A DNA stretch of 64,000 nucleotides from Mobula birostris (GCF_030028105.1 NC_092376.1:179962080-180026079), one strand, 5' to 3'. Shown: positions 3,112 through 55,525, numbered from the stretch's first letter. Notes: a model not told the origin generated them from the letters alone. Program-made: numbers and translations.

Positions 3112-3253
3112 GCTTTAAGAAGTGAGCTGCACTCTCATTGGCCAGATATGAATGCAATGTTGTTCACCAATCAGAGGTTGAGATGTGCCTGGTGATCCGC
3201 ACAGTCCCTTAAATATGCAGCCGCCATCTTCTAAGTTCAGACGCCGTGAAAAC
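3112..3253 (+). promoter_or_regulatory. Conserved promoter module of exon 1
   Basis: GCTTTAAGAA 3112, ATTGG 3137, CCAAT 3167, GTGATCCGCACAG 3192, YY1-like CCGCCATCTT 3221, CAGACGCCGTGAAAAC 3238; module repeated before all six exons. Confidence 0.85.
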
Positions 3254-3434
3254 TGGATAACAGCAGATCGGGAAGGTCTGTGTACGATTTACCTCGAATA
3301 GAAGACTACATGTTAACATTTAAATGAAAATATTACTGCAATTTCGAAGAAGGTATAGATATATTCAGCGTCATATTTGTCCCATCTAAATTAAATCGCC
3401 GTTAAAAGGCATTGTCTCGGATGAAACCATTGGT

Positions 3435-3461
3435 ATGATTTCTCCTGGAAATGAGATATAA
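3435..3461 (+). other. Overlapping uORF MISPGNEI* (counterparts at 13729, 28185, 42391, 50139 and 55706)
   Basis: ATG 16 nt upstream of the main ATG and out of frame, present before all six exons; translation is inferred, not shown. Confidence 0.6.
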
Positions 3462-5913
3462 TATAAACGGGCTGTTGAAATACCAACTGTTTTGCGCTCT
3501 GTTCTGTCGTTGGAATCTAGCTTCTGGGCAGATTCGTTACTCTATTCCCGAGGAATTACAACTGGGTGCCTTTGTTGGAAATATCGCAATTGATTTGGAG
3601 TTAGATTTAAAGCAGCTGTCAGCTCGCAGATTGCGGGTGGCGCCCAGCCCGAGGAAGCAGTATGTTGAGGTAAATTTGGAGAATGGGATTTTATTTGTGA
3701 ATGAAAGAATCGATCGGGAACAACTTTGCGGACCGAGCAATGATTGCATTTTATCCTTGAATGTTGTACTTGAAAATCCACTCGGTCTGTATCAGGTGGA
3801 AGTGGAGATTATCGATGTAAATGACAACGCTCCCAGTTTCCCTGAAAGCCACATGCGCCTGGAAATCTCAGAAATTATGGCACCGGGAGCGCGATTCCCC
3901 CTCGAGGCCGCTCACGATCCTGATAGTGGAACTAACTCCTTACAAACATACCAGCTCCTTCCCAATCGATATTTTATTCTTGATGTACAGGAGCGCAGTG
4001 GGAAAGGGAAGCTACCGGTGTTGATGTTGCAGAGCCCTTTAGACAGAGAAACAGTAACCAGTCTCCAGTTAACGCTTTTAGCCGAAGACGGCGGAGTTCC
4101 GATGAAATCGGGCAAGGCCGAGATAACAATCATAGTGCACGATGCGAATGACAACTCTCCTGTTTTTTCGCGGTCCGTTTATACCGTGAGTCTGTTGGAA
4201 ACGGCTCCATTAGGATCCCTCATCATGACAGTAAACGCCACGGACTTGGATGACGGACCAAATGGAGAGATCACGTATTCCATCAGCAGCCACAGTTCTA
4301 AAAATATTCCCGAAGTATTTAGTGTCGATTCAAAAACCGGAGAAATCAGATTGAAAGGACACTTGGACTATGAACAAAATAATTTTTTTGAGATTAATAT
4401 ACAAGCAGTCGATAATGGCCCTTACGCGATACCGCAGCACTGTGATGTGCTGGTGAATGTTGTCGATGTGAATGACAATGCTCCTGACATGAAGTTAACG
4501 TCTACGTTAAGTGCAGTGCCAGAGGATACCTCAGTTGGGACAATAGTGGCACTACTCAGCGTAGATGACAAAGATTCTGGACAAAATGGGCGAGTGCAAT
4601 GCAAAATATCAAGCCAACTGCCGTTTAAAATCGAATCGTCTGTAGAAAACTTTTATAGACTGCTTATACGGCAATCGCTGGATCGTGAAACTGCTTCCAG
4701 GTATGACATTACCATAACATGTACGGATGCAGGGTATCCTAATCTAACGTCCACAGAAACGATTCGAGTAGATGTTACAGATGTTAATGACAACGCTCCG
4801 AGGTTTCTACAAGCAGTACACACTGCGCATGTCATGGAGAACAACGTTATTGGGGCTTCTATATATTCGTTAACTGCTTTTGACTCCGACATAGGACAGA
4901 ACGCCCGTCTGAACTTTTCCATCCTGCCATCTCAGGTTCAGAATTTCGCTATTGACTCTTATATCTACATCAACTCACAAAGTGGTGTCATATATGCTCA
5001 GAAATCTTTTGACTACGAGAAATTAAAAAAATTCAAAATTTACGTTCAGGTGCGGGATTCTGGAACCCCACCCCTCTGCAGCAACTCCTCTGTAGATGTT
5101 GTTGTCCTTGATCAGAACGACAACGCTCCAGTCATTGTGTATCCTTTGCCCCAATATGGGTCAACAGTAATGGAGACGATATCCAGGTTTGCTGAACCTG
5201 GACACCTCGTTGTCCAGGTATCTGCTACTGACGCCGATGCCGGTCAGAATGCTCTTCTAGTTTATCAGATTGCCCAAGCCACTCATCGCAATCTGTTCAC
5301 AATTTCAGCGGATACAGGGGAAATTTGGACTATCCGCGGTATTGAGAACAAGGATGCCTCCAAACAAAGGCTGATGATTGTCGTGAAAGATAATGGAACG
5401 CCTTCGCTCTCTGCAACTGTAACCATATTATTATCTGTGAAAGGGGGCCAAACGATGTCCAGTGCCACCAGTTTATCTAAAAAGGACGATTTTGCGCCCG
5501 ATTTGAACTTCTCCTTGGTCATCGCCTTAGGAACAACTTCTCTGATTTTCCTAATTATTTTGGTTATCCTAGCGTTTAAGGTTCATAAAACAAGAAACGG
5601 TGGTGGATGTCGATACAGTTCTCTGACTACCTGTTGCTGTTTGGGATCAAGGAATTCTGTGAATGGAATTCAAAAGGCCAGTAGGAGCCTTCAGATACCA
5701 CCGAACTACGTTGAGGTATTCGGAGGTGATCCACTTTCCCAGAGTTTCCGTTACAAGTCGTGTTCAACGTTGCAGTCTGTGAAGAGAGACCTCGCGATCC
5801 CGCAAACTTGCGGGTTGTCTACAGATATGCATTACAACCAGCTGAAGTTTGTTGCGAAAGAGAATGCAGGAATGATAAAGCCAGAGGAGAGCAATTGCAA
5901 TGTAAGCACTGAG
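3451..5913 (+). CDS. Clustered protocadherin variable exon 1 (821 codons to the donor; the ORF reads on to a stop at 5928)
   Basis: Signal peptide then GQIRYSIPEE; six EC repeats with LDRE/LDYE and DxNDNxP motifs; EC1 Cys-X5-Cys (CGPSNDC); TM LVIALGTTSLIFLIILVILAF; cytoplasmic IPPNYVEVFGGDPLSQ; phase-0 donor GAG|GTGAGG at 5913/5914. Confidence 0.96.
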
Positions 5914-6384
5914 GTGAGGAGCTGCTGAAGAGAATCGAAATTGTTCACTATTTAATTTGATTATCATGCAAATATTTGGGTCATTGTGATCACTGTACTA
6001 TGATGAAATTAATGTTACGCTCACAATCTCAGTGTGGACGCAGTGATCGAATAATATTTCTAATTGCTTAATGGGTTTATGTTACAAAGTGTTTAGTTTT
6101 TTTCGCAATTGCATGTAACTCCAAGACATTGTTTCACTTGTTTGATCTCTCTGTGAGAGGCTGTGTGGGGGCAGGTTCTAGGCCGTTTAGAATTTATTGT
6201 GATAACAAATTGCGTTAAAATTAACTTGTAGCAAATTACTGAATAAGTATGTTCCAGGCACTATGAACACTGCCTTTGAAGAAAAAAAATGTTTTGGCTG
6301 CTTAAACCCCTTGGTTAGGTATGAGCAAAATGGTTTTGGTGCCGCTTTTCGGTCACACGAGATTTATTCACTCTCTTTGTATTC

Positions 6385-6590
6385 GGAAATCAAAGATACC
6401 TGAAATAAAGCGAGGAAGTAGGAAAATTCTCAGCAACCTCCACGTTGGGAGAAATTAGAGCTAACGTTCTAGACCGGTAAAGAAGTCGATGAAAAATGCT
6501 CATACTGAAACGTTAACACATTTCTCCACCCGCCGTAAGAAGTTTTGAACGACTCCTGTGCTCAGTATGATTGCATTTAAACAATCATTC
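6385..6590. mobile_element. Ancient palindromic Penelope-derived element with a degenerate hammerhead motif
   Basis: Inverted arms GGAGAAAT..TAACGTT (6448-6468) and AACGTTAAC..ATTTCTCC (to 6527); CGATGA...GAAACGTT; related copies at 45295-45475 and 53040-53225. Confidence 0.45.
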
Positions 6591-6789
6591 GAGTTGTGGA
6601 ATTGGGCAGAACAACTGGAATTAGGGAAAAGTGTTTCGAATCCAGATGCTGTAGTTTGATTGGCTAATGACCAGTCGCAGGGTATTTCACCGAATAAGAC
6701 CGTGGTCGTATTTTTATCTACATTTGATATTGAGAATACATTAATGAGGCGGAGCAACGGCAATTTGAATTTACTCAAGGCGATGCGTA

Positions 6790-7380: not shown

Positions 7381-7676
7381 ACCATCTTCTTGAATAATCA
7401 CGGTCAATGTGGTGTCAAACCGCTCGTGCGCATTTTCTGGAGTCTTCTTGTGATTATAATGACACTTGTTAAACTTAAGCCCATCGCCCCTACTGGGACA
7501 TAGCCAACCGAAAGCAACTCGCCGGATTCCTCTATCCTGGCCCAGTCTTTGCCCAGATATAGCCCATTTAGACGAAGGTTCTAACTCTCTTCCGAAGAGA
7601 AGTTTTTGGAGTTTCTGTCGCCGTTTCTGTAGCTCTGGGTTTTTAAACAAATGGGTTTCTCGTGCCATGAACAAAA

Positions 7677-13391: not shown

Positions 13392-13535
13392 GCTTTAAGA
13401 AACGACCAGATTCCTGATTGGTTCGAATATCAATCAGGTTCTCCACCAATCGTGAGCTGAGATGTGATTAGTGATCCGGACAGCCCTCCTTACGACACAG
13501 CAACCATTGCGTCAGATCAGACACAATGAAGACAG
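13392..13535 (+). promoter_or_regulatory. Conserved promoter module of exon 2
   Basis: GCTTTAAGAA 13392, ATTGG 13417, CCAAT 13446, GTGATCCGGACAGCCC 13471. Confidence 0.85.
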
Positions 13536-13744: not shown

Positions 13745-16204
13745 ATGAGATATAAAGTATATTGGTTGCTGAAATGCCAATTGTTGTTCTGTGTATTCTG
13801 CCTATTGGACATGGTGTGTGGTCAGATTCGTTACTCTATTCCTGAAGAACTACAACCGGGAGCCTTTGTTGGAAAAATCGCTGCCGATTTAGGTTTAGAT
13901 GTGGAGCAGCTGTCGGCTCGCCGCTTGCGGGTAGCGCCCGGTCCTGGTAAGCAGTATTTCGACATAAATTTGGAGAATGGGATTTTAATTGTGAAAAAAA
14001 TTATCGACAGGGAGCTGCTTTGTGGGTCGAATCTCGACTGCCGCTTATCCTTGGATATTGTGCTTGAAAATCCCCTGAGCCTCTACCAGGTGGAAGTGGA
14101 TGTTCTCGATGAAAATGATAATGCCCCCAGTTTTCCGAAAAGCCAGCTTCATCTTGAAATTATAGAGCTTGCAGGACCCGGAATGCGATTTCCTCTTGAA
14201 CCAGCGCACGATCCGGACATTGGCACAAACTCCTTACAAACCTACCGTTTACAATCAAATGACTATTTTAGTCTAGATGTACAAATGCGTCGTGGAAAGG
14301 GCAAATGGCCAGTATTGTTGTTACAGAAACCTTTGGACAGAGAAATAATGGCGACGCATAGTATAACGTTAACGGCAGAAGACGGCGGGTTCCCTACGAG
14401 ATCGGGCACAGTGCAGATTATAGTAGCAGTGAAGGATGTTAATGACAACGCGCCTGTTTTCTCCCAGTCGGTTTACAGAGTCAGATTATTGGAATCTGCA
14501 CCAAAAGGGACTCTGATTATCACATTAAACGCTACTGATATGGATGATGGGCTGAATGGAGAGATAATGTATTCTTTCCGTAGCCATATGTCTTCGACTT
14601 CCCGCAGTCTTTTTGATCTGAATTCCAAAACTGGTGAAATCAGACTCAAAGGGAAGTTGGACTATGAAGAAAGCAACGTCTTTGAAATTAACATACAGGC
14701 GACGGATAAGGGTCCTGGCGCTGTTCCTGAATACTGTGATGTATTGGTTGAAGTTGTCGATGTAAATGATAATGCACCGGAGGTGAAATTGCGGTCTTCC
14801 TCTGCGACTGTTTCGGAAGACGCTCCGCTTGGGAGTGTAGTGGCTCTGTTCACTGCAGAGGATAGAGATTCCGGACAAAATGGTCAGGTACGCTGTCAAA
14901 TTTCAAATCGACTGCCCTTTCAGCTGGATTCGTCTTTAAAGAACTACTACAGAATCCTTGTACAGCACCCACTCGACCGCGAAAACAACCCCAAGTATGA
15001 TATCACTATTGAATGCATGGATGCAGGGGAGCCTCCCCTCACTTCTAAGAAAACCATCCGAGTAGAGGTTTCAGATATAAACGACAACCCGCCAAGGTTT
15101 TCTCGCCCAGTGTACACAGCACATGTTATGGAAAACAACGTTATTGGAGCTTCCATATTTTCTCTGACGGCCGTCGATACAGACGCTGGAGAGAACGCCC
15201 GACTGAACTTTTCTATCCTAGAGTCTCAGGTTCAGAATTTCTCAACAACCTCTTATGTTTCAATTAATTCAGCAAGTGGTGTGATCTATGCTCAGAGATC
15301 TTTTGACTATGAACAATTGAAAAACTTCCAGATTCAAGTTGAAGTGCGGGATTCTGGTACGCCATCTCACACGACCAATGCGTCGGTGAACGTTATTATC
15401 TTGGATCAGAATGATAATGTTCCAGTGATTGTGCATCCTTTACCCGAATACGGGACGTCAGCAATAGAAACAATCTCCAGGTTCACTGAATCTGGCTCCT
15501 TGGTTGTCAAGGTCTCTGCCACCGATGCAGACTCGGATCAGAATGCTCGACTCTCGTATCAGATTCTTCAAGCCACCCATCGCAACCTTTTTACCATTTC
15601 TGCAGACACTGGTGAAGTTTGGACTATCCGTCGAATATTGAACAGAGACGCTTCTAATCAGAGACTGGTGGTTTTGGTAAAAGATAATGGAATACCATCC
15701 CTTTCTGCCACCGTGTCTATATTATTATCTGTGGTTGGGACTGATAGTGAATCGTTCTATGGTGTCAGTAACTCATCAGCAGATTCGGGGAGCATTCCTG
15801 AACTGAGGCTTTCTTTGGTTATAGCCTTGGGAATAATATCTAGCTTACTCCTCATAATGTTAATCATCCTCGCCATTAAAGTTCACAGAAACAGGAAAGG
15901 GATGGTATACCAGCACCGTTCTCTGGGTAGTTGTTGTTGCTCTGAATCAAGAAACTCTTTGAATGGAATACAGAAGACCAGTAAAACCCTTCAGATACCA
16001 CCAAACTATGTTGAAGTATTTGGGGGCGATCCTCTCTCACAAAGATTCCGTTACGGGTCATGTTCGACATTGCAGTCTACCAAGAGGGATTTCACCGTCT
16101 CCATCAACAGTCGATCCTCTGCAGACCAAAATTTTGTTCTGAACGAATCCGCCTGTAAAGGAAATGTTGCAATGGTGGATTCTGAAAAACATAGCGTTCC
16201 TGAG
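13745..16204 (+). CDS. Clustered protocadherin variable exon 2 (820 codons; ORF stop 16240)
   Basis: Same 6-EC/TM architecture; CGSNLDC; donor GAG|GTAAGG at 16204/16205; closest paralog is exon 3. Confidence 0.96.
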
Positions 16205-16499
16205 GTAAGGTCATTTAAAACAGAGAGCGAAAACCTTTAAAGTTTTGCTGGAAAGCACAAGAATTTGGATAGCTACCAGTATATTAAGATAAACAGCGTG
16301 AATCGTGTAGCTAAAGAGAAACACTGCGCTCATTGTTAAATCTGTTTGACATTACTTTTTTTTTGTCCAGTGTGATGTTTTGCAGACAAAAATGATATAT
16401 AATTCTAATATATTGCCAAAGAGTTACAAACCTTTCTTGACATCGCCTTGATTTTTCGAGGTATGGTTACTCCTTTCTGCATTCTTTCCTCCAGGAGAG

Positions 16500-27853: not shown

Positions 27854-27996
27854 GCTTTAAGAAACGTCATAAATCCTGATTGGTGGAATATCAATACACT
27901 TCTACACCAATTGGGAGCTGAGATGTGTTTAGTGATCCGGACAGCCCTCTTTACGGCACGGCAACCATCACGTTAGATCAGACACAATGAAAACTG
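27854..27996 (+). promoter_or_regulatory. Conserved promoter module of exon 3
   Basis: GCTTTAAGAA 27854, ATTGG 27879, CCAAT 27907, GTGATCCGGACAGCCC 27932. Confidence 0.85.
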
Positions 27997-28200: not shown

Positions 28201-30660
28201 ATGAGATACAAAATATATTTGTTGCTAAAATGCCAATTGCTGCTTTGCGTGTTCTGGCTGTCGAATATTGTGTCTGGTCAAATTCAATATTCTGTTCCTG
28301 AAGAACTCCAACCGGGAGCCTTTGTTGGGAAAATCGCAGCCGATTTAGGTTTAGATGTGAAGCAGCTGTGGTCTCGCAGATTGCGGATAGCGCCCAGTCC
28401 ACGGAAGCAGTATTTCGACGTAAATGTACAGAATGGAACTTTATTTGTGAAAGAAATTATCGACAGGGAACTGCTTTGTGGGTCTAATCTCGATTGCCGC
28501 TTATCGTTGGAAATTGAGCTTGAAAATCCCCTGAGCCTCTACCAGGTGGAAGTGGAGGTTCTCGATGAAAATGATAATGCCCCCAGTTTTCCGAAAAGCC
28601 AGCTTCATCTTGAAATTATAGAGCTTGCAGGACCCGGAATGCGATTTCCTCTTGAACCAGCGCACGATCCGGACATTGGCACAAACTCCTTACAAACCTA
28701 CCGTTTACAATCAAATGACTATTTTAGTCTGGACGTACAAATGCGACGTGGAAAGAGCAAGTGGCCAGTATTGTTGTTACAGAAACCTTTGGACAGAGAA
28801 ATAATGGCAACGCATAGTATAACGTTAACGGCAGAAGACGGCGGATTCCCTCCGAGATCGGGCACAGTGCAAATTATAGTAACAGTGAAGGATGTTAATG
28901 ACAACGCGCCTGTTTTCTCCCAGTCGGTTTACAGAGTCAGATTATTGGAATCTGCACCAAAAGGGACCCTGATTACTACATTGAACGCAACTGATTTAGA
29001 CGATGGCCTCAATGGAGAGATAGTGTATTCTTTTCGTAGCCATATCTCTTCGACTGCTCGTAAACTTTTTGATCTGAATTCCAAAACTGGTGAAGTCAGG
29101 CTGAAGGGGAACCTGGACTACGAAGAAAGCAATGTTTTTGAGATAAAAATACAAGCGACAGATAAGGGTTCTAACGCTGTTCCCGAGTACTGTGATGTAT
29201 TTGTTGAAGTGATTGATGTGAATGATAACGCGCCGCAGGTGATATTGCGGTCTTCCTCTGCGACTGTTTCGGAAGTTGCTCCGCTTGGCAGTGTAGTGGC
29301 TCTGTTCACTGCAGAGGACAGAGACTCTGGAAAAAATGGTCAGGTGCGTTGTCAAATTTCAAATCGACTACCCTTTAAGCTGGACTCATCTTTAAAGAAC
29401 TACTACAGAATCCTTGTACAGCACCCGCTCGACCGCGAAAGCAATCCCAGGTATGATATTACTATTACATGCACGGATGCGGGGGACCTTCCCCTCATTT
29501 CCAAGAAAACCATCGGAGTAAAGGTTTCAGACGTAAATGATAACGCACCAAGGTTTTCTCGCCCAGTATTCACAGCAAATGTTATGGAAAACAACGTTAT
29601 CGGGTCCTCTATATTTTCACTGACGGCCTTCGATACGGACGCTGGAGAGAACGCCCGACTGAACTTTTCTATCTTGGACTCTCAAGTTCACAATTTCTCA
29701 ACAACCTCCTATGTCTCAATTAATTCAGAAAGTGGTGTTATCTATGCTCAGAGATCTTTTGACTATGAACAATTGAAAAACTTCCAGATTCAAGTTGAAG
29801 TGCGGGATTCTGGTACGCCACCTCACACGACCAATGCGTCAGTGAACGTTGTTATCCTGGATCAGAATGATAATGCGCCAGTGATTGTGCATCCTTTACC
29901 CGAATACGGGTCGTCAGCAATAGAAACAATATCCAGGTTCAGTGAACCGGGGTCCTTGGTTGTCAAGGTATCAGCCACCGATGTAGACTCGGGTCAGAAT
30001 GCTCGACTCTCTTATGAGATTTTTCAAGCCACGCATCATAATCTTTTTACCATTTCGGCAGAGACTGGCGAAATTTGGACTATCCGTCCAATTGTGAACA
30101 GGGATGCCCCTAATCAAAGACTAGTGGTTGTGGTAAAAGACAATGGAATGCCACCACTTTCTGCCACTGTGACAATTGTATTATCTGTGATTGGGACTGA
30201 TACTGAAACGGTCTCTAGGGTCAGCAGTTCTTCGGTGGATCCCAGAGTCCCTCCTGAACTGAGCCTTTCCTTGGTTATAGCCTTGGGAATAATATCTAGC
30301 ATTTTGCTCATAATGTTAATCATCCTCGCCATTAAAGTTCACAAAAACAGGAATGGTGCGGTATGCCAGCATCACTACCTGAGCTCCATTTGTTGCTTCG
30401 AAACAAGAAATAGTTTCAATGGAATTAAAAAGGCCAGCAAAAGCATTCAGATACCACCAAACTATGTTGAAGTGTTTGGGGGCGATCCTCTCTCCCAAAG
30501 ATTCCGTTACGAGTCATGTTCGACATTGCAGTCTACCAAAAGGGATTTCACACTCTCCAGCAGGAACAGGTCATGTGCAGACCAGAACTTTGTTCTGAAC
30601 GAATCTGTCGGTAAAGGAAATATTGCAATGGTGGATTCTGAAAAATACAGCATTCCTGAG
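28201..30660 (+). CDS. Clustered protocadherin variable exon 3 (820 codons; ORF stop 30684)
   Basis: Same architecture; donor GAG|GTGAGG at 30660/30661; same length as exon 2 and colinear with it. Confidence 0.96.
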
Positions 30661-31759
30661 GTGAGGCAATTTGAACCAGACTGAAAAACCTGATAGGTTT
30701 GGCTTGAAAATACAAAGTAGTTTAGATGGGTACCGGTATATTAGGATAAATAGTATGAACGATGTAGCTTAACGGGAAATACTCTTTGATAAATCTTTCT
30801 AGATTACTTTTCTGTCTAGTGTGATGTTTTCAATGATGATTATTATATATTATTCCAATATATTACTAAATAACTTTAAATTATTTTCTAGAAGACCTGG
30901 TTTTTAGAAGTTTGTGTAATTCTTCTTCATAACATTCTTTCCTCCAAATCAATTGGTAACACACTAGTATTTAAGCCTGGAACAGTTTTTCCAGTCGAGT
31001 GGACAATTTCTTTATAATTCTTCCAATCTGATACATTGTGCTCTGAGCTCATTTTTTGGTCTCCTCTACCATGGGGTATATAAACGTAGAATGAGTGCAC
31101 AGTTCTTCATTTCGGCCCTTTCCAGTGTCACGAGCTTCCAGGCGTTCTTCACTTTTATTCTGCATTCCACTACACTGAGCTCTGAACGAAGTTTTGCGTA
31201 TTGTCGAAGAATACCATCTAATCTTCCATCCAGGCATATTATAATCTTTGAATTCGGTATGTAGTTCAACAATTAGCTTGCAAACCTCCCTAATGTAGGA
31301 TGGTTAACTGAGCACTTCCACCAGACACTTTTGTTTTAGATTTCCAACAGCTGGCTTAATCTGTACTTTACTGTGATAACTTTATTTTTAATCTCCTCTA
31401 TATTCCTTATCCCTCAGTGTTTATTTCCACACATCCATACGTCCCTTAGGCGGCAGTAAAAGCAATTATGTGACCAACACAGCAAATACTTTGTCCTACA
31501 ACAGAGATGTGTTTGCTCTCATGTCACCAGCCAAAAAACCTATGCTCAGTGCACTAACTAACATGATTGTTTTTGCCAGTTTGCACTGCAGACCAATGGA
31601 AATTGAGCCATGATATATAGCACTGGTCCTAGCTCCACACATGATGTTTTTCATGACGAGTTTCCCAAGATGTCCTGGTCTTGCTTTTAGATACGTTTAC
31701 GGGTTTAGCACGCATTCTAGGCATCAAAAAATGTATGTTAATGAGTCTATGGACAGCTG

Positions 31760-37726: not shown

Positions 37727-37731
37727 AATGG

Positions 37732-40700: not shown

Positions 40701-40754
40701 CTTGTGGCTTCGGGGGTCAGGGGGTATGGAGGGAAGGCTGGGGCGGTGTTCTGA
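37732..40754 (+). pseudogene. CR1 ORF2 (APE endonuclease plus reverse transcriptase), frameshifted
   Basis: NARS, ITETW, YRPP, GDFN, SDHN; YRPVSL, QGSVLGP, FADD; KAFDNRRL lacks residues of the FDKVPH motif seen in other copies. Confidence 0.92.
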
Positions 40755-42043: not shown

Positions 42044-42185
42044 GCTTTAAGAAATGAGCTGACTTCCAATTGGGCAGATATGAGCGCTACCTTGTCAACC
42101 AATCAGAAGCTAAGATGTGACTGGTGATCTGCACAGCCCCCTTCATACCCAGCTGCCTTCGCGTAAAATCAGACGCCGTGAAAAC
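42044..42185 (+). promoter_or_regulatory. Conserved promoter module of exon 4
   Basis: GCTTTAAGAA 42044, ATTGG 42069, CCAAT 42099, GTGATCTGCACAGCCC 42124, CAGACGCCGTGAAAAC 42170. Confidence 0.85.
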
Positions 42186-42406: not shown

Positions 42407-44839
42407 ATGAGAGATAATATAAACTGGCTATTGAAATACCAACTGCTTTGCTCTTTGTTCTGTCGTTGGAATCTAGCTTCTGGGCAGATTCGTTACTCTA
42501 TTCCCGAGGAATTACAGCTGGGTGCCTTTGTTGGGAATATCGCAATTGATTTGGGGTTAGATTTAAAGCAGCTACCGTCTAGAAGATTGCGGGTGGCGCC
42601 CAGTGCGAAGAGTCGGTATGTTGACGTAAATTTGGAGAATGGAATTTTATTTGTGAATGAAAGAATCGACCGGGAACAACTTTGCGGGCCGAGCACTGAA
42701 TGCGTTTTAACATTCAACGTTGTGCTTGAAAATCCCCTCGCTCTGCACCAGGTGGAAATTGAGATTCTCGATGTAAATGACAATGCTCCCAGTTTCCCTA
42801 AAAGCCAGATACGCCTGGAAATGTCAGAGATTATGGCACCGGGAGCGAGATTTCCCCTTGAAGCTGCGCACGATCCGGATATTGGAACTAACTCCTTACA
42901 GACATACCAGCTCCTTCCCAATGATTACTTTGTTCTTGATGCAGAGCTACGAGATGGTATAAGGAAGTTCCCGTTATTGGTGCTGCAAAAGGCTTTGGAC
43001 AGAGAAAGGATATCGACCCATCAGATAACTCTAGTTGCCGTAGACGGCGGAGTCCCTGTGAAATCGGGCACGGCCCAGGCAACAATAACGGTGAACGATG
43101 CGAATGACAACTCTCCTGTTTTCCAGCAGTCGGTTTATAAGGTCAATATTTTGGAATCGGCTCCCACAGGAACACTGCTTATCACGGTAAATGCCACTGA
43201 TTTGGACGATGGTCGAAATGCAGAGATAATATACGCCCTCAGCAGCCATAATTCAGCTGAGGTTCGCGACTTAGTTAGCGTGAACTCCAAAACTGGTGAA
43301 ATCAGACTGAAAGGACCGTTGGACTATGAACAGCAAAGAACATTTATGATTAATATTCAAGCAATCGATAATGGTCATCCCACGATGTCCCAACACTGTG
43401 ATGTGCTGGTGGATGTAATGGACGTGAATGACAACGCTCCCGAGCTGACCTTCACATCCAGTGCAAATGCCGTAGCAGAAAATGCTGCAGTGGGAACTAT
43501 TGTCGCCCTTATCAGCGCAGAAGATAAGGATTCTGGGCAAAATGGGCAAGTACAATGTCAAATTCCGAGTAAACTTCCCTTTAAGTTAGATTCGTCCATA
43601 ACTAACAGTTGGATATTGCTTATACAGCGTTCGCTGGATCGCGAAACTACCTCGAGTTATGACATCACTCTAACTTGCATGGACACAGGGAGCCCTGCCC
43701 TCACATCTAAGGAAACGATCCATGTGGAAGTCTCAGATGTAAATGATAATGCCCCAAGCTTTACACAGCCTACATACACGGCAAATATCATGGAAAACAA
43801 CGCCATTGGGAATTCCATATTCTCTCTGAACGCATTCGATCCAGACTCGGCACAGAATTCCCGCTTGAACTTTACTATCCTGAATTCATCCGCAGCTTCG
43901 TATGTCTCCATCAACTCGCAGAGTGGTGTGATATTTGCTCGGAGATCCTTTGACTACGAGCAGTTAAAAAACTTTCAGATATACATTAGGGTTCAGGATT
44001 CTGGAGTCCCACCCCTCGCCGGTAACGCTACAATCAATGTTAATATCCTTGATCAGAACGATAATCCCCCGGTGATTGTGCATCCTGTGCCCGAGTATGG
44101 GTCAACCGTAATGGAGACAATAAGTAGGTTTGCTGAACCTGGATATCTCGTTGCCAAGGTCTCGGCTACTGACGCCGATACTGGTCAGAATGCTCGGCTG
44201 TCTTACCAGATTTTTCAGGCTACCAATCGTGATCTTTTCACTATTTCAGCAGACACCGGTGAAATTTGGACTATCAGAGCGATTCAGAGCAAGGATGCTT
44301 CTAACCAAAGACTTGAGATTGTCGTAAAAGATAACGGAACGCCCTCACTTTCAGCCGCAGTAACCATAGTGATATATGTGTCAGGAAGTGAAACGATCTC
44401 CAGCTCCACCAGCTTAAACAACGATCGTGAGTTCTCTCCCAAACGAAATCTTTACTTAGTCATAGCGTTAGGGTCTATGTCTATAATTTTCCTCGTAATT
44501 TTAATTATTCTTGCTATTATAGTTCATAATAATAGAAACGGAATGGAATGCCAATACAATGTTTGTTACTGTTTGGAAACAAGCAACTTTCTAAATGGGA
44601 CCCAAAAAGCCAGTAGAAGCCTTCAGATACCTCCGAACTATGTCGAGGTATTCGGAGGTGATCCACTTTCCCAGAGTTTCCGTTACGAGTCGTGTTCGAC
44701 TTTGCAGACCATGAAGAGAGACTTTGCAACCCCGCACGGACCATCTTCATCTGTTCCCTGCAGCCAAAAGAAATCCATAGTGAAAGAAGACCCTGGCATG
44801 TTAAACTCTGAAGTCTACAGTTGCAAAACAAAGAACGAG
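42407..44839 (+). CDS. Clustered protocadherin variable exon 4 (811 codons; ORF stop 44866)
   Basis: Same architecture; donor GAG|GTGAGC at 44839/44840; shortened EC5 loop shared with exons 5 and 6. Confidence 0.96.
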
Positions 44840-46071
44840 GTGAGCTACTTCGCAAAGAAAAAATAGTTTTGGAATCTAGGGCGAATGCGCTTAAGGGGCC
44901 AGCATTATTATCTAGGTCTAAGCATTTTGTGCATAGTGGTTTTGAACCAAATGCCTAATTTCCATATATTCCTTTTAATCTATTTGAATTCTTGCAACAT
45001 TAAATATATTGAAATCGCATTACTGCACCAGGTCCCGGAAGCTCACGTGATTCTGTAAAGAATTGCTATCTCAATTGACGTTTATCGTAGTGGTCTGTGT
45101 GAGGTAAAACTTGTCTATATTCCCTACACTTTATATTTTCACTATCGTGCAAAAACTGCGAGTAAACTGGTGAACATCCTTGTTCTGAGCGCTTCCGTTG
45201 AAAGCAGCAGTTTTCCCCAGATTCCGACGATCGCCACGTGTTTCAAATCTGGCGGGTGGGGGCGTGGAGGCACGTAGGTGCTGCAAAGCGTAAATACTGT
45301 ACGTAATGCAAAAATTACTGCGACATCTCAGAAGCGAGAACCAAGGCTGCACGTTTCCAGCCGTTAACCTTAAATCCGAATTCGATGTAAGTTGATCAGT
45401 CTGTAAATTTATATTTGGTTTTCTCTTCGGCGGTGCTGCTTGACAAGATGAGTATTTCAATACATTTTGGTTCCTTAATTCCTATCTAAATTATCCACAG
45501 TACCTTATCTGCTACAAATGAGCCTAGACCTTCCGTACTAGGCCTTATGGAACTCTCTATGCTCAGGGAGTTACCAGTTTAATGCAAGAGAATATATTCC
45601 AACAAGATTCTGAATACCTCCTTCTTATTGGTGAAGGGCTACGGAGAGCTCCCAAAGCCCACAGAATCAAAATATACGGTCTCTTATCAAAGCCAATGTA
45701 TGCATGCGGCAATTTCAAATGTTGCTGATACATAGAGAGGTATGACTTAGTAGGGCATGGGACGTTGCCGTGCAGTTCCTGCCTAGTTCATTTACATTCC
45801 TTTATTGGCCAGGTCTGGGAGAAAGTTGAGTTAGGCTAGCGAATTCCGCGGTGGAATGAATTTTCCGTACTGCTAATCAGGATGAAGGTTTTGCTTTGAA
45901 TGGTATTGAGTGTTATGTGTAATGACACAGTTAGATATTCGGGTAGATTTTAAATATTCAAGCAAAAAACTGATTTGTGGCTTTCAATTTTCAGAAGGCT
46001 AGAGGAACAACAAAAATCCATCATAACTATAGCACTTAAGTTGTCAAATCAGTATTTTGTGAAAATGCGAA

Positions 46072-47093
46072 TAGAAACATAGAAACATAGAAAATAGGTG
46101 CAGGAGTAGGCCATTCGGCCCTTCGAGCCTGCACCACCGTTCAGTATGATCATGGCTGATCAACCAACTCAGAACCCTGTACCTGCCTTCCCCCCATACC
46201 CCCTGATCCCCGTAGCCACAAGGGCCATATCTAATTCCCTCTTAAATATAGCCAAAGAACTGGCCTCAACTGTTTCCTGTGGCAGAGAATTCCACAGATT
46301 CACCACTGTCTGTGTGAAGAAGCTTTTCCTAATCTCGGTCCTAAAAGGCTACCCCTTTATCCTCAAACTGTGACCCCTCGTTCTGGACTTCCCCAACATC
46401 GGGAACAATCTTCCTGCATCTCACCTGTCCAATCGCTTTAGGATTTTATACGTTTCAATAAGATCCCCCCTCAATCTTCTAACTTCCAGAGAGTATAAGC
46501 CTAGCCGATCCAGTCTTTCATCATATGAAAGTCCTGCCATCCCAGGAATCAATCTGGTGAACTTTCTTTGTACCCCCTCTATGGCAAGATTGTCTTTCCT
46601 CAGATTAGGGGACTAAAACTGCACACAATACTCCAGGTGTGGTCTCACCAAAGCCTTGTACAACTGCAGTAGTATCTCCCTGCTCCTGTACTCGAATCCT
46701 CTTGCTATGAATGCCGGCATACCATTCGCCTTTTTCACTGCCCACTCTCAATGACTGGTGTATAATGACACCCGGGTCTCGTTGCACCTCCCCTTTTCCT
46801 AATCGGCCACCATTCAGATAATAATCTGTTTTCCTGTTTTTGCCACCAAAATGGATAACCTCACATTTATCCACATTAAATTGCATCTGCCATGAATTTG
46901 CCCACTCACCTAACCTATCCAAGTCACCCTCCAGCCTCTTAGCATCCTCCTCACAGCTAACACTGCTGCCCAGCTTCGTGTCATTCGCAAACTTGGAGAT
47001 GCTGTACTTAATTCCCTCGTCTAAGTCATTAATATATATTCTAAACAACTGGGGTCCCAGCACTGAGCCCTGCGGTACCCCACTAGTCACTGC
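46072..47093 (-). mobile_element. CR1 3' fragment of the same subfamily as 36510-40850
   Basis: Reverse complement closely matches ~39812-40850, including the tail. Confidence 0.92.
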
Positions 47094-47839
47094 ATGTGAC
47101 ATCAATGATGGCACCGTGACTTAACTCGAGGAGAAGTGGTTGCTCAGGACGGGAAATGGAAAGCAATTCTGCTATATAGGAGTGCTTCCTAAGTTACAAG
47201 TCAAAGCAACAGTATTCTGTGGAGCTTCTTTCATGTGAGTATGGATAGCTTGCCTATTTAGAGAATGTTGAATATAAATTTGCATCGTGTGGTCAATAAC
47301 AAACTTTCCCAATTATAATACTATGCTGGAACATAGCTTACGAAGTGTCCGAGATGGAAGCGTATACTCAGAACCCTAAGGAATTACTGAAGAGATGCTT
47401 TGCTTTACAGATTAGCAGAAAGTTATGATTTTTTGTATAGTGCTGTAGGTGTCATCGGTAAGGCTAGTGTTACCCATCCGACGAGGCCTTTAGGAAAGTG
47501 GCAAAGAGACATCATTATAAAGCAATGAGGTGGTGGATCTCCTGCAAAGTTACTGCAGAAGAAATTCCAAGAATTCCATTTAGGAGCAGTGAAACAATTG
47601 TGATTTATGATTCCTAGTCAAAGCTAAACGTATAACAAGGATGAAAGCAGAGAATATTAAAGTACTCCAAAGAATATTGATTTTTGAGTTACTAGCGAAG
47701 TATTCTACAAGTTACTATTCTATTCATTTCGCTAAAAGGAAGACACTTAATGGATTGCATTATGCATTACATTTTGAACACAGTCAATCACTCCAGCTTT
47801 TGTTTTTGGAGTGCGTTTGCATGCTGTGCGTTTACATGA

Positions 47840-48844
47840 TCAGAATCTGTATCAGAAGCAGGTTTAATATCGCCGGCATACGTCGTGAAATTTGTTAACT
47901 TTACAATACATGATAGCACATGATAAATATAGAAAAAAAGCTGAATTACAGCAAGTATATACGTGTATACTAAAAGGTTAACTTTAAGTAAGTATTGCAA
48001 AACAGAAATAAAAGAACGAGTGAGGTAATGTTCATGGGTTCAATGTCTATTTACAAATTGGATGGCAGAGGGGAAAATGTTCCTGAAACGCTGAATATGT
48101 GCTTTCAGGCTTCTGTACCTCTTTCTTGATGGTAACAATGAGAAAAGGGCATGATGGACACCGCTTTTCTGTGGCAGCACTCCCTGAACTTGTCTTGGAT
48201 ACTACACAAGGTTGTACGCATGATGGAGTTGACTAATGTAAACACTTCCAGCAGTTTACTTCGATCCTATGCAGTAACCCCCACCAACACTTCCGCCCTC
48301 CCTCCATACCAGACGGTGATGCTGCCTGTTAGAATCCTCTCCACGGTAGAAGTTTTCGAGTATTTCAGGTGATAAACTAAATTTCCTCAAACTCCTAATA
48401 AAATATAGCCGTAGTCTTGCCTCCTGTATAGCTGCATCGATATGTTGTGACCAGGATAGATCCTTAGAGATGTTGACACCCAGGAACTAGCAATTGCTCA
48501 CTCTCTCCACTTCTGATTCCTCTGTGAGTATTGGTTCATGTTTCCTCGTCTTACTCTTTCGGATGTGCACAATCAGCTCTTTGGTCTTATTGTCAATGTG
48601 TGCAAGGTTGTTGCTGTGACACCACTCAGCCAACTGGTATATCTCCCTCCTGTGCGCCCGCTGTTACCATCTGAGATTCTGCCAACATGGTTGTATGATC
48701 AGCACTGGAACCATGCCTAGCCACACAGTCATGGGTATAGAGAGAGCGGATCAGTGCGCTAAGCACGCATCTCTGAGATGCGCAGTGTTGATTGTCAGTG
48801 AGGTGGAGATGTTATTACCAATCCACACAGATTGTGGTCTTCAC
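47840..48844 (-). mobile_element. Rex1/Babar-like LINE 3' fragment
   Basis: ATCAGAATC-type tail; minus-strand LLPSRKRYRSLK..RFRN-like motif. Confidence 0.65.
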
Positions 48845-49102
48845 AATCACTTTGAATGATGCGAATGACAAATCTCCTGTATTCTCGTAGTTGCTGTAAT
48901 CAGGTCACTATGCTCTAATCAGCTTCCATAGTATCTCCCATTATTACGTTAAACGCCATTAATTGGATGCTGGCCCGAATGGAGAGAAAACTTCTGCCCT
49001 CAGCAGTCATAACTCAGATGAAATTCGCGAAGTAGATGGCGTGAATTCGAAAACTGAGGAATTAAAATTGCAAGATCTGCTGGTCTATGAACCAGAGAAA
49101 GT
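48845..49102 (+). pseudogene. Decayed protocadherin relic (EC2/EC3 junction and EC3)
   Basis: Reads ITLNDANDKSPVFS*...ITLNA..LDAGPNGEKTSALSSHNSDEIREVDGVNSKTEELKLQDLLVYE with stops and frameshifts; aligns by eye to 50833-51085 and to the same part of exons 4 and 6. Confidence 0.85.
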
Positions 49103-49813
49103 TAAAGTACCTTAATGACTATTGGTTTTTGCCTCAGTAGAGCGGCGTCTATCGACTAAGTTTCCATTCATTTCTTTAGTAACAGCAATAGATCACATTT
49201 GATATTAGGACTAAACAGAGACTTAATGCTAGGCATAGTGGAATTCTGGCTGACATTTTACGAAGAGGCAAAAAATATTAGCTTTTGCTTTACGTAACGA
49301 CAACCGGGAGCATTTCATTGATAACATTTAAATTATGAAAAGCTATAGACAAACAAATTTACTCGGCAATTTATTATGGACAGAAACATATTTTGGCTAT
49401 ATAAATATTCGTTTAAAACTGCTGCAAAGAGAGATTTTTCATCCTGGTAAAGGAATTTTACCAGGATGGTAAAGGAATCTTCTTTTTCTTTTATTTTATT
49501 TGGTTGGCGTTGACAGGGTTCTATAAGAATTAATTAGCAGGTGCCCACCATTGTAAACCCATGATGTAACAAATATATATGGATCCCGCATGTCATTTGA
49601 TTATCAGCAAGAGGAGTCGCTTGATTGAATTTGATTGCGATCCTCGGGGTTTTATCTCGTGGTTGTCATTTAAGATATTCACTGTGTCATAGTTTCTGAA
49701 ATGACAATCAAGGACTGAAATGTCCGCAAAAATCAAAATAATCTGGAATGCTGAAACAAATTTCAATTGTACACTATTAAATGTAAGCAGTTGCGCCAAA
49801 TTGAGCACTTCTT

Positions 49814-49956
49814 GCTTTAAGAAATCAGATGAATTCCAATTGGTCCGATATGAATACTGCATTATCGACCAATCAGAAGCTGAGGTGTGACTGGTGATCC
49901 GCACAGCCCCCTTCAGTACCCAGCCTCTATGGCTTAGGCTCAGACGCCGTGAAAAC
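49814..49956 (+). promoter_or_regulatory. Conserved promoter module of exon 5
   Basis: GCTTTAAGAA 49814, ATTGG 49839, CCAAT 49869, GTGATCCGCACAGCCC 49894, CAGACGCCGTGAAAAC 49941. Confidence 0.85.
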
Positions 49957-50154: not shown

Positions 50155-52590
50155 ATGAGAGATAATATACACTGGTTGGTGAAATATCAGCTGTTTTGCT
50201 GTTTGTTTGCCCATTTGGATTTTGTTCGTGGCCAGATTCGTTATTCTGTTCCCGAGGAATTACAAGTAGGTGCTTTTATTGGGAATATCGTGCTTGATTT
50301 GGGGTTAAATTTAAAACAGCTGTCGACTCGCAGATTACGGGTGGCGCCCAGTCCGAGGAAGCGGTATGTTGACGTCAGTTTGGAGAATGGGATTTTATTT
50401 GTGAATGAAAGAATCGACCGGGAGCAACTTTGCGGGCCAAGCACCGAATGCGTTTTATCATTCAACATTGTGCTTGAAAATCCCCTCGGTCTGTACCAGG
50501 TGGAAGTGGAGATTCTCGATGTAAATGATAACGCTCCCAATTTTCCTGAAAGCCAGACCGGACTGGAAATCTCAGAGATTATGGCACCGGGAGCGCGATT
50601 CGCTCTCGAGGCCGCGCAAGATCCGGACATTGGAACTAATTCCTTGCAGACATATCATCTCATCCCCAATGAATATTTCATTGTCGACGTACAAGTACAC
50701 GATGGTATAGGGAAGTTCCCAGTATTGGTATTGCAAAGGGCATTGGACAGAGAAACGATATCGACCCATAGGTTAACGCTACTTGCTGAAGACGGCGGGG
50801 TCCCTGCGAAATCTGGCACAGCCCAGGTAACAGTCACAGTGAACGATGCTAATGACAACTCTCCTGTGTTCTCCCAGTCGGTTTATAAGGTCAATCTGCT
50901 GGAATCAGCTCCCATAGGAACTCTGATTATTACGTTAAACGCCACTGATTTGGACGATGGCCCGAATGGAGAGATAACGTACTCCCTCAGCAGCCATAAT
51001 TCAGCTGCGGTTCGCGAATTAGTTGGTGTGAATTCCAAAACTGGTGAAATCAAACTAAAAGGACCGTTGGACTATGAGAAAAGCAGAGCACTTATGATTA
51101 ATCTGCGAGCAGTCGATAACGGCCCTTACCCAATGCCCCAGCACTGTGATGTGTTTGTGGGTGTCACCGATGTTAATGACAACGCTCCAGAGCTGTCAGT
51201 GACGTCCCTGTCAAATGCCGTGGCAGAAAATGCTCCAGTGGGAACCATTATCTCCCTCCTCAGTGCGGAAGATAAGGATTCTGGGCAAAATGGGCATGTC
51301 GAATGTCGAATTCCGAATAATCTTCCCTTTAAGTTAGATTCCCCTGTGAAAAACAATTGGAAACTCTTTGTACAGCATGCGCTGGATCATGAAACTACCT
51401 CCAGGTATGACATTACGGTGTCTTGCACAGATGCAGGGCGTCCACCCCTCACAGCTAAGGAAATTATCCAGGTGGAAGTTTCAGATGTAAATGATAATGC
51501 GCCAAGATTTACACAACCTGTATACACGGTAAATGTTATGGAGAACAACGTTATTGGGGACTCCATATTCTCCCTGACAGCTTTCGATCCAGACACAGGA
51601 CAGAATTCCCGATTGAACTTTACTATCCTGGATTCATCCGTAGCTTCGTATGTCTCCATTAACTCGCAGAGTGGTGTCATATATGCTCAGAGATCCTTTA
51701 ACTACGAGCAGTTAAAAAACTTCCAGATATACATTAGGGTTCAGGATTCCGGTGTCCCACCCCGCGCCAGTAACGCTACTGTTAATTTTGTTATCCTTGA
51801 TCAGAATGATAACGCCCCGGTGATTATACATCCTTTACCGGAGTACGGATCAACAGTAATGGAGACAATATCCAGGTTTGCTGAACCTGGATATCTTGTG
51901 GTCAAGGTCTCTGCTACTGATGCCGACGCTGGTCAGAATGCCCATCTGTCTTACCACATTTTTCAAGCTACGCATCCCGATCTGTTCACGATTTCTGCAG
52001 ACTCTGGTGATATTTGGACTATCCGTGGTATACGAAGTAAGGATGCTACAAAACAACGGCTGGTGATTGTCGTAAAAGATAAGGGAACACCCCCACTATC
52101 AGCCACGGTAACCATAGCAATATCTGTGACAGGAAGTCAAAAGATCCCCAGTGCCACCAGCTTAAGCAAAGATCGCGAGTTCTCCCCTAAACTGAACCTT
52201 TACTTAGTTATCGCATTAGGAACGACATCTATCGTTTTCCTCATAATTTTAATTATCCTTGCTATTAAAGTTCATAATAACAGTAACGGAATTAGATGCC
52301 AATATAATGTCTGTTACTGTTTGGAAACAAGGAACTTAAATGGAACTCAAAAAGCTCGCAGAAGCCTTCAGATACCGCCTAACTATGTTGAGGTATTCGG
52401 AGGAGATCCACTTTCTCAGAGCTACCGTTACGAGTCATGTTCAACTTTGCGGTCAGTGAAGAGGGAATTCCCGACACCCCACAAGCGTGGAGCGTCTACA
52501 GATATTCCCTATGCACAGCAGAAACCTCTTGGGAAAGGAAGTGCAGGAATGGTAAACTCTGAAATCTACAGCTGCAATACGCGTAATGAG
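50155..52590 (+). CDS. Clustered protocadherin variable exon 5 (812 codons; ORF stop 52599)
   Basis: Same architecture; donor GAG|GTGAGT at 52590/52591. Confidence 0.96.
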
Positions 52591-53554
52591 GTGAGTTAAT
52601 TCGCAAAATAAAGTAAATCGTTTTGATTTTCTGGCCATTGCATATCCTGGGACTGCTTGAACTCTCCGTCAAAGTATTATTGGTTCATGTTTCGCAACCC
52701 TACTTGTCGTGCATATTTTTTATTTAAGTGTTCCGAATTCTGTTGGATTGTATGTAATTCCAACGCGTTGCTCCACAAAGTTCTGGAAGCCCACAGGCTT
52801 CTCTCAAGTGAGGTTAATCGCAGTCCTTGGTGGGGGGGGGGGGTGCGAGGGAGATTAAACTGCTCCACATTTACTACACTCATACTTTAGATCTGTTGGC
52901 AAAACCCAGGAGCATACCGCTGAGCGTAACTTACTGTGAGCACATCATTGGAGAGTAACAGTTCTTCTCGGTTTTTTAAAGTCACTTGTATTTAAAAGCT
53001 GAAGGAAATAATCATGTCGCCGCTGAAAAGCGGAAATCGAAACGAGCTTGATGTACAGAAATTACAGCAACATCTGTGGAGCGAGAATCAAGCGTCAACG
53101 TTTCGTTCGATGACCTTAAATCGAACCTTGATGTAGGGTGATCATTCCGGAATACTATGTTTCAGTTTGTCTCCATCAGGGCTGCTTGAGATGATCAGTA
53201 TCTCAAAATATTTTGGATTATTATTTAGGATCTAAACTATGTATTGAATCTAAATTATCTGCTACTGAGCCGGAGAGTCAATTTTGACAATAATTAACTC
53301 TGCATATATTATCGGCGTTACATAATCAGTCTAAGAGAGATTGTTCCAACAAGACGCTGATTGCCTCCTTTTTAGTGGCTAAAGTGTACCGAAAGCGCTC
53401 AAACACCATAGAAGCCAAATATGCATCTTGTGACAGCCAACGTATGTATAGCTCATTCACAAGTTTCTAAGAAATAGTGAGGTATATTTTAGCAATACAA
53501 GGGATCTTGTCATGCTGTTATTTCCTTCTGCATTCACATTTCTTTATTAGAGTC

Positions 53555-54115
53555 ATAGCTCCATAGAAAAATAGAGGACAGAAACAGTTCCTTCGGCCCG
53601 TTTTCCAGGTCGAGACCATTTAAACTACCACCTCCCATCGAACTGCACCGGGACCATAGCCTATTATCCAGATACCTATTCAAACTTCAAACGTTGATTT
53701 CGTCCTCGCATCCTGCACTTGTGCTGGCAGCTCATTCAATACTCACAATCTTCTGAATGCAGCAGTTTACCCCCATTTTCCCCTTAAACTTTTCACATAT
53801 CGCTCTTAACCCATGAACTCTGGTTGTAGTCCCACCCCAAACTCAATGGAAAAAACCTGCTTGCATGTACCCTTTCTATATCCCTTCATTAGTTTGTACA
53901 GCGCTAGCAAATCTTCTCTCAACCTTCTACGTTCTGAGGAATAGAGTCCCAACCTATTCAATCTTTCTTTATAACCCAGGTCCTCCAGACCTGGAAACAT
54001 CCTTGTAAACTTTCTCTGAACTCTTTCAAACTTATTTGCATCTTTCCTGTCGGCAGGTGACCAGACCTTCACACAATACTCCAAAATAGGCCTCACCGAT
54101 GTCTTACACAACAAT
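53555..54115 (-). mobile_element. CR1 3' fragment
   Basis: VRPILEYCVKVWSP, ERVQRKFTRM, RLREDL. Confidence 0.8.
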
Positions 54116-54467
54116 TATCCAGATCTGAGAGAGAACTGGGAGAAATATCAGTGAATTATTCCAGTGCATTCTGTGACGGACTGAATAAATATTTAAGGCA
54201 TTTTATGTACTGCTAATCAGAATGAAGGCTTTGAATGAATGGTTTTGAGTATTCCGGGTGATTTTATATTTACATATTCGAGTACTTGTAAAATATTTAA
54301 GCATTGTGTTGAGCTTGTTCCAAATAAGTACGGACTATCTACTATCTGACGAATGTTAAATACAAATTAACATCGTGTGGTCAACAGCGAACATTCACGC
54401 ACATAATAATGAGCTGCTTTTTTCGGAAGTCTTCGAGATGAAAAATTCCACGCCAATTCCCAAACAA

Positions 54468-54489
54468 CTAATTAATTAATTAATTAATT
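54468..54489. repeat. (TAAT)n microsatellite
   Basis: TAATTAATTAATTAATTAATT. Confidence 0.8.
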
Positions 54490-55382
54490 GAGATATGGTT
54501 TGATTTGGGGATTAACCTTCTTCGATATCAACGTTGTGATTCTTTGTATCCTGGATATGGGTGTTACATGCAAGGCTAATGTTTCTCTCATCCATGTTGC
54601 CCTTGGAGAAGAAGTGAGGAGACACCTCCACGAATCAGTGAGTCCGTTGTGTTGAGACAGCTCCCGTAAACTTATTGCGTAAAAGTTCGAAGGTTTAGGT
54701 CCAGGATTAGTGAAGGAAATGTGATATATAATTCCCAGTCAAAGTTAAAGGTAGAACAGGAATGAAACCAGAGCATATTAAAGTACATAGGAGAATATTG
54801 AATTTCGAGTCAGTGGAGTGGCATTGTACAGGTTACCTCCATTCAGTTCTGCAGTGATAGTCTTCGATGTCGTCAGATATCGGGACAGGAAAGGGATTTA
54901 ATTATAGACATGATGGCATTCCAATTTACATTTAAAACAACGCCGGTTTCATTAGCCTTTGCTTCATCAGAAGACCATAGGGAGTACATACATGGAAACC
55001 TTCACATTATGAAAAGCTATTATTAATATTCAACTTGCAGTTCTATATTTGTTTTTGGTTGGGTCTGTATAAAGGAAGGTGTGCGAAATAATTCTATGAG
55101 TATTAACTATTAGCTGGCAACAACTCTAAAAGATGATAAAAATATATACATAGAACATTTCTATAATTAGATTCTCAGCAAGAGCGGATACTTTTTTGAA
55201 TTTTATTTGTTCCTGAAGATATTTTCCAACAGTTGATCTTAAGGTATTTACTGCACTGAGTATGTGAAACTATGATTCGGAAGCCAAGTTTCTGTAAAAC
55301 TCTGAATCATCTAGAATGCTGAAATTAATTTCAATTGTGCACTCTTAAATGTAACAACTCTGCGCCAAATGGAATATCACTT

Positions 55383-55525
55383 GCTTTAAGAAATTAGCTG
55401 AATTCTAATTGGCCAGATATGAAAGCTGCATCGTTCACCAATCAGAAGCTGAGCTGCAAGTGGTGATCCGCACAGCCCCCTTCAACACGCAGCCGCCATC
55501 ACGTATGATCAGACGCCGTAAAAAC
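55383..55525 (+). promoter_or_regulatory. Conserved promoter module of exon 6
   Basis: GCTTTAAGAA 55383, ATTGG 55408, CCAAT 55438, GTGATCCGCACAGCCC 55463, CAGCCGCCATC 55490, CAGACGCCGTAAAAAC 55510. Confidence 0.85.

Follow-up and report, generated by a model that had tools for sequence, protein, structure and literature searches.

The stretch of Mobula birostris DNA analysed here (64,000 nucleotides, GCF_030028105.1 NC_092376.1:179962080-180026079; hereafter the window) contains six intact variable exons of the clustered protocadherin (Pcdh) class of nerve-cell identity genes, g1 to g6, arranged in tandem on the + strand, and each of them is preceded by a conserved promoter module built around two CCAAT boxes. 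Each exon terminates near a GAG/GT splice donor, and the structural test for nu-type genes found a single large variable exon, cadherin repeats, a transmembrane segment, a splice donor and a tandem array. The top protein matches of g1 are batoid (80% to a sawfish protein), and those of its matches that bear a subcluster name are Callorhinchus nu17, nu8, nu15 and nu13. A quick tree was built from 52 rows, namely 46 of the 120 listed hits and the six window proteins; five of the rows are Callorhinchus proteins, and none is from epsilon, mu or delta. In this tree every chondrichthyan row groups in a single clade with Callorhinchus nu8/13/15/17 (Shimodaira-Hasegawa-like approximate likelihood ratio test, SH-aLRT, 99). 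The window genes fall inside a catshark-plus-batoid subclade (SH-aLRT 100) that holds none of the tree's five Callorhinchus proteins, and they divide into three lineages, g1, g2/g3 and g4/g5/g6, for each of which skate, sawfish or torpedo-ray relatives are present. Because the g2/g3 clade and the g1/g4-6 clade both include skate proteins, their split predates the skate/ray divergence. A constant region of nu-like type is present in P0001 and P0004, two close orthologs; the constant exons, and the distal enhancers, lie beyond the window ends. Judged by these protein comparisons, g1-g6 are most likely protocadherin variable exons of the nu subcluster, from a group that has expanded in elasmobranchs; this subcluster is reported to have no bony-vertebrate ortholog (PMC2764143).

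Motif A, GCTTTAAGAA, and motif D, GTGATCYGSACAG, each have exactly six copies in the window, all on the + strand (Table 1). The initial annotation of this DNA had placed the order GCTTTAAGAA, ATTGG (box B), CCAAT (box C), GTGATCYGSACAG some 340-360 bp before each ATG, and we find this order in front of all six exons, with motif A 339-363 bp upstream. Its distances are reproduced as well: measured from start to start, GCTTTAAGAA to ATTGG and CCAAT to the GTGATC of motif D are both 25 bp in 6/6, and ATTGG to CCAAT, given as 28-30 bp, is 30, 29, 28, 30, 30 and 30 bp from g1 to g6. The apparent 25/25 symmetry is an artefact of the start-to-start measure, the gaps between motif edges being 15 and 20 bp. 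The idea that only four motifs are shared does not hold, since ATAT, TCAGAC and GCAG are likewise invariant. An AAYTGTGCA-like element upstream of the module is largely conserved, the CpG inside motif D is kept in 5/6 copies, and g3, g4 and g5 each contain one palindromic CCAATTGG box. Neither a seventh promoter nor an orphan module was found in the window, and no Rfam match to a structured RNA lies within it. The g2 module alone carries an 8-bp inverted repeat, CCTGATTG ... CAATCAGG (13413-13438), which flanks the spacer between boxes B and C and creates a near third CCAAT-like box.

Table 1. Promoter modules, variable-exon open reading frames (ORFs, each starting at its ATG) and exonic CTCF-like sites of the window; CTCF scores are from an approximate matrix.
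Feature	Coordinates	Strand	Details
g1 module	3112..3242	+	A 3112-3121; ATTGG 3137-3141; CCAAT 3167-3171; D 3192-3204; YY1-like site 3220-3231 (minus); TCAGAC 3237-3242
g2 module	13392..13522	+	A 13392; ATTGG 13417; CCAAT 13446; D 13471; TCAGAC 13517
g3 module	27854..27983	+	A 27854; ATTGG 27879; CCAAT 27907 (weak NF-Y context); D 27932; TCAGAC 27978
g4 module	42044..42174	+	A 42044; ATTGG 42069 (weak NF-Y context); CGCT 42085; CCAAT 42099; D 42124; TCAGAC 42169
g5 module	49814..49945	+	A 49814; ATTGG 49839; CCAAT 49869; D 49894; TCAGAC 49940
g6 module	55383..55514	+	A 55383; ATTGG 55408; CCAAT 55438; D 55463; TCAGAC 55509
g1 nu-type Pcdh variable-exon ORF	3451..5928	+	825 aa up to first intronic stop; GAG/GTGAG donor near end
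g2 Pcdh variable-exon ORF	13745..16240	+	Cadherin_2, Cadherin repeats, Cadherin_C_2
g3 Pcdh variable-exon ORF	28201..30684	+	recent paralog of g2
g4 Pcdh variable-exon ORF	42407..44866	+	
g5 Pcdh variable-exon ORF	50155..52599	+	
g6 Pcdh variable-exon ORF	55722..58274	+	
g1 exonic ATG+335 copy	3786	+	score -1.5
g2 exonic ATG+335 copy	14080	+	score 9.6
g3 exonic ATG+335 copy	28536	+	score 9.6
g4 exonic ATG+335 copy	42742	+	score 8.6
g5 exonic ATG+335 copy	50490	+	score 4.5
g6 exonic CTCF-like site, ATG+335 (best copy)	56057..56075	+	score 13.6

An upstream block of about 500 bp aligns among all six paralogs, so the six promoters are copies and not independent. Identity between paralogs is 0.44-0.80 at four-fold codon sites and 0.56-0.71 in the module spacers, and 63/133 module columns are invariant versus 62/190 in the gap-free leader and 26/148 at four-fold codon sites. 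Neutral simulations (4000 per tree) produced an invariant run of 10 bases in 0.05% of cases, in 0.6% on a 0.8x tree and in 0 on a longer tree, and they reached 63 invariant columns in 0%, or in 1.7% on the shorter tree. Since the motifs exceed what these simulations produce, they are under selection, with the caveat that some 5' gene conversion is hinted at. In three lineages older than the divergence of skates and rays, the module motifs are thus better conserved than neutrality predicts; the module is real, old and under selection. The observed-to-expected CpG ratio is 0.72-1.11 from -400 into the exon versus 0.53 in intergenic DNA.

When the 149 CCAAT cores are scored with an approximate NF-Y matrix, seven of the eight highest places go to boxes of the modules, every promoter has one site of at least 13.6, and 10/12 boxes reach at least 10. 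Two boxes are weak, g3 box C (7.8, rank 39) and g4 box B (7.4, rank 41); with one such box in each of these two promoters, the pattern resembles redundancy more than an obligate dimer. The NF-Y dimer proposed in the initial annotation is therefore retained in part: twin NF-Y-like boxes do stand back to back and their footprints could fit, but obligate dimerisation is doubtful. With a footprint of -7 to +17 (PMC4982600), two back-to-back NF-Y trimers would lie 9-11 bp apart and leave 2 bp to motif A and 7 bp to motif D. The same annotation had tentatively assigned motifs A and D to two extra factors, which agrees with their conservation in 6/6. As a cell cycle genes homology region (CHR), motif A was rejected because it contains none of TTTGAA, TTTAAA, TTCGAA, CTTGAA and TAGGAA on either strand (variants from PMC4176359); TTTAAG and CTTAAA are absent from the main text of that paper, so that the comparison covers part of the ten CHR variants. 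YY1 scores are 17.6 in g1 (the best of the window), 9.1 in g6 and at most 4.7 in the other four (approximate matrix), and YY1 was discarded as a general module component because it fits only g1 and partly g6. CCAAT boxes typically lie 60-100 bp upstream of the start site, and TCAGAC, 70-71 bp downstream of CCAAT, is at about the position where a start site would be predicted. A role of NF-Y in start-site fidelity has been described (PMC6624317).

In mammals, promoter choice in the clustered Pcdh genes uses the conserved sequence element (CSE), which has a CGCT core and is bound by CTCF/cohesin. Five bases before CCAAT the promoters show the 4-mers TGTT, GGTT, ACTT, CCTT, CATT and CATC, exactly as claimed, and CGCT is found in 0/6 promoters at that register. 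Its absence does not extend to the whole promoter, as in g4 a CGCT lies within the module, at ATG-322 and 10 bp ahead of CCAAT, and g5 and g6 have it at -55. At the CSE-equivalent register the CTCF scores are -18.6 to -36.8 (approximate version of MA0139.1) and no module reaches 8, which bears out the absence of a CTCF-matrix match; the best forward score in the promoters is 4.1 with this matrix, for which no real CSEs served as control. On either strand between -600 and -20 the best score is 7.6 (g5, 49902, minus), and g3 has a minus-strand score of 8.6 at -18. A decayed CTCF site overlapping box B, in the g4 register, was rejected as too weak (-6.3).

The reading that we prefer, with a probability of roughly 0.6, is that these elasmobranch nu protocadherins have a proximal promoter that is based on NF-Y, carries two orphan motifs and lacks a CTCF core. 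Tandem duplications would have copied this promoter together with each exon, and purifying selection would have retained it. NF-Y would occupy one or, probably often, both of the back-to-back CCAAT boxes, and would keep a nucleosome-depleted region that sets the start site near TCAGAC, some 70 bp further downstream; two further sequence-specific factors would bind motifs A and D, just outside the NF-Y footprints. The module would then act as a common activation platform that, like an ordinary core promoter, tolerates small indels and is under no more than a loose constraint on spacing. The module alone cannot reveal how one promoter is chosen, or whether the choice is stochastic.

Several points weigh against this reading. 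Only about three independent lineages are represented by the six promoters, and the p of the NF-Y rank test (1e-7) therefore overstates the evidence, and 5' gene conversion may inflate the similarity of the promoters, since four-fold identity at the 5' end exceeds that in extracellular cadherin repeats 3 and 4 (EC3-EC4). The NF-Y, CTCF and YY1 matrices were all approximate; that the CCAAT box is the 3' half of the vertebrate CSE is an assumption, and so is the register used for the comparison. NF-Y binding, the start site and the function of the module are each deduced from the DNA. Finally, pairwise gaps number 12 per kb in the module versus 41-43 in the flanks (15 non-independent pairs), which favours a stricter spacing than the reading allows.

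The rigid spacing put forward in the initial annotation fares unevenly: the exact 25-bp distances are present in 6/6, but they exceed chance only under some nulls. All spacing tests concern the six window promoters and thus about three lineages. In the multiple alignment, 25-bp intervals are equal in all six promoters in 71/113 cases upstream, 31/103 in the module and 25/165 in the leader, that is, 15-63% of comparable promoter-block intervals are equally indel-free. Indel events number 4 in 133 module columns versus 14 in 261 leader columns (p=0.22), with 4 in 144 upstream, and in an alignment-free comparison landmarks 138 bp upstream of motif A hold their distance to within 1 bp in 5/6. The A-B and C-D spacers have zero indels, and the rest of the module changes by 1-2 bp. 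At the intergenic indel rate (0.07 per substitution, from 17 non-LINE repeat pairs after three pairs of long interspersed nuclear elements, LINEs, were dropped), the chance of at least 2/6 spacers being clean is 0.12-0.025, and at the leader rate it is 0.54. For the two chosen spacers P is 0.15-0.007, or 0.54-0.025 once their selection from among six is taken into account, and at most two events in 60 spacer bp have P 0.064-0.010 at the intergenic rate and 0.38 at the leader rate. With three lineages, a spacing constraint in the module is plausible but borderline.

One alternative, compatible with an NF-Y-based promoter, would have CTCF/cohesin organise the choice via a forward exonic site at ATG+335 and distal anchors, and we regard it as possible, if somewhat doubtful. 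Its distance from the CCAAT box, about 630 bp in the downstream direction, is similar to that between the CSE and the forward exonic CTCF-binding site of mammalian alpha exons, about 700 bp (PMC7811963). The score of the ATG+335 site is at least 8 in 4/6 copies (Table 1), 8 being the threshold of the skate genome paper with the same matrix, on a score scale that may differ (PMC10115646). The codons CAG GTG GAA are invariant in 6/6, and in synonymous resampling a fraction of 0.005-0.084 reached the observed scores of g2-g6. However, the site was picked after a scan, the peptide (H/Y)QVE largely determines its sequence, and in g1, where it scores negatively, the best CTCF site is a minus-strand one at +441 (13.9). 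CTCF matches at p<1e-4 number 16 window-wide versus 12.8 expected, the per-gene maxima beat resampling in g1 and g6 only (P 0.03 each) and not in the other four, and the FPLE region, the location of the mammalian exonic site, scores -14.2 to 3.3 on the + strand. A more radical proposal, which we judge unlikely, is that a rigid NF-Y dimer and the factors on A and D form an enhanceosome that replaces the CSE, with CTCF-independent choice possibly switched by methylation at the motif D CpG. The indel-free A-B and C-D spacers, their P at the intergenic rate, the close packing of NF-Y footprints, the retained CpG and the lack of a promoter CTCF site all fit it. The leader-rate P, the equally exact intervals outside the module, the equally steady landmarks upstream of A, the 2-bp variation between boxes B and C and the weak boxes of g3 and g4 speak against it; nothing ties the module to choice, and skates have CTCF loop extrusion with a CTCF orientation code (PMC10115646).

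The shared motifs could also be passive relics of duplication or gene conversion without special function, as the alignment of the whole 500-bp block, the 56-71% pairwise identity of the spacers and the raised 5' four-fold identity might suggest. We consider this very improbable: neutral simulations seldom or never yield such invariant runs or as many as 63 invariant columns, the bases flanking both boxes fit the NF-Y matrix well, and the three lineages, each with skate, sawfish or torpedo-ray relatives, are old. Just as improbable is motif D as a REST/NRSF site, namely the right half of a neuron-restrictive silencer element (NRSE), as in teleost Pcdh promoters. In g2 and g3 a GGACAG stands in register with TYAG, at three mismatches to TYAGMRCCNNGGMSAG (consensus from PMC2926608), and right-half-only NRSE sites exist in PCDHA (PMC8096226). 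In g1, g4, g5 and g6, though, there are six mismatches and the GG dinucleotide is lost, the dinucleotide whose mutation has been used to inactivate NRSEs (PMC2926608), and the invariant GTGATC of motif D falls outside the NRSE. With TYAGMRCC-NN-GGMSAG unmatched at three positions in 2/6 and at six in 4/6, REST was rejected for motif D.

Compared with the mammalian SSE-CSE, the NF-Y-type module that we favour is likewise a shared element a few hundred bp before each ATG in a CpG-rich promoter and exon. The mammalian element is reported to combine spacing sensitivity with a nearby YY1 site (PMC3333863), and the best YY1 match of the window is in ray g1. Mammalian SSE-CSE activity is killed by linkers of +5, +10 and +15 (PMC3333863), so spacing sensitivity would not set the ray module apart. 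In contrast to the mammalian CSE, the ray module is without CGCT at the equivalent register and without a CTCF-matrix match, lies at about -290 instead of about -200, and has twin CCAAT boxes together with motifs A and D. The contrast drawn in the initial annotation was nevertheless overstated, as Pcdh promoters without CGCT or CSE have already been published: zebrafish and Xenopus alpha CSEs are described without a CGCT box, the 22 Xenopus genes gamma2 15-36 without a CSE and with an unassigned 13-bp motif about 200 bp upstream (PMC4978886), and mammalian alpha-c2, beta1, gamma-c4 and gamma-c5 without a CSE (PMC7811963). The ray array shares with these the lack of CGCT and differs from them in subcluster and lineage. 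With elephant shark nu it shares the subcluster, by the protein tree and by the constant-region homology of its orthologs; a CGCT element is reported second-hand for the elephant shark cluster, with the subcluster not stated (PMC2926608), whereas the window genes belong to the catshark-plus-batoid clade.

Among twin-CCAAT NF-Y promoters, direct repeats at 31 bp and an inverted pair at 32 bp in TOP2B are known (PMC4982600). The ray boxes are similarly about three helical turns apart, and inverted or everted pairs are a recognised rarer class (PMC4982600); unlike the known cases, the ray boxes stand back to back at 28-30 bp. No description of elasmobranch Pcdh promoters, or of NF-Y at clustered-Pcdh promoters, was found among the matches listed, in which subscription literature is thinly covered, and none of this module in the literature searched, the original elephant shark cluster study being outside its coverage. 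The module is a lineage-specific promoter variant with fish and frog precedents, and it is not yet evidence for a new gene-choice mechanism.

Promoter choice by loop extrusion is the standing model of Pcdh barcoding and is based on mammals, and an old, expanded shark/ray array lacking a promoter CTCF core is a natural setting in which to ask if CTCF at the promoter is both ancestral and necessary. Chromatin work in skate and catshark is feasible, which makes the question testable, and at minimum the locus yields two strongly conserved orphan motifs, A and D. The boldest version would be that the nu array achieves single-neuron diversity without promoter-anchored CTCF, through the twin-NF-Y module, two new factors and a methylation gate at the CpG of motif D, with D perhaps equal to the Xenopus gamma2 13-mer. 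We think this improbable, and sequence alone does not demonstrate a new mechanism; were the two motifs the same, they would represent an ancient second type of Pcdh promoter.

At the 5' ends of the exons, four-fold-site identity is 0.55-0.82 in the first 130 codons (signal peptide and EC1) versus often 0.2-0.5 in EC3-EC4, a pattern that may reflect 5' gene conversion or constraint at the DNA level. This pattern differs from the 3' homogenisation tested for in other Pcdh arrays. All six genes also have an out-of-frame ATG 16 bases 5' of the main ATG (3435, 13729, 28185, 42391, 50139 and 55706, +), whose frame runs for 8 codons overlapping the start in 5/6 genes and for 38 codons in g3; the conserved upstream ATG could dampen translation or reflect 5' homogenisation.

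Other elements lie between the genes. Two 1.19-kb direct repeats, 87% identical (23235-24422 and 26513-27680), surround a gag-like ORF (25189-25926) that is broken and matches SCAN weakly, short of the Pfam cut-off, and the whole (23235-27680) is probably an old long terminal repeat (LTR) retrotransposon. Its end lies just beyond the conserved promoter block, about 175 bp upstream of motif A of g3. A degenerate protocadherin EC2-EC3 fragment without promoter module (48822-49103, +) is found about 700 bp upstream of the g5 module, and LINE-type pieces with endonuclease and reverse-transcriptase domains occur at 37082-40851 (+), for which Pfam was used, 46072-47120 (-) and 62813-63997 (-).

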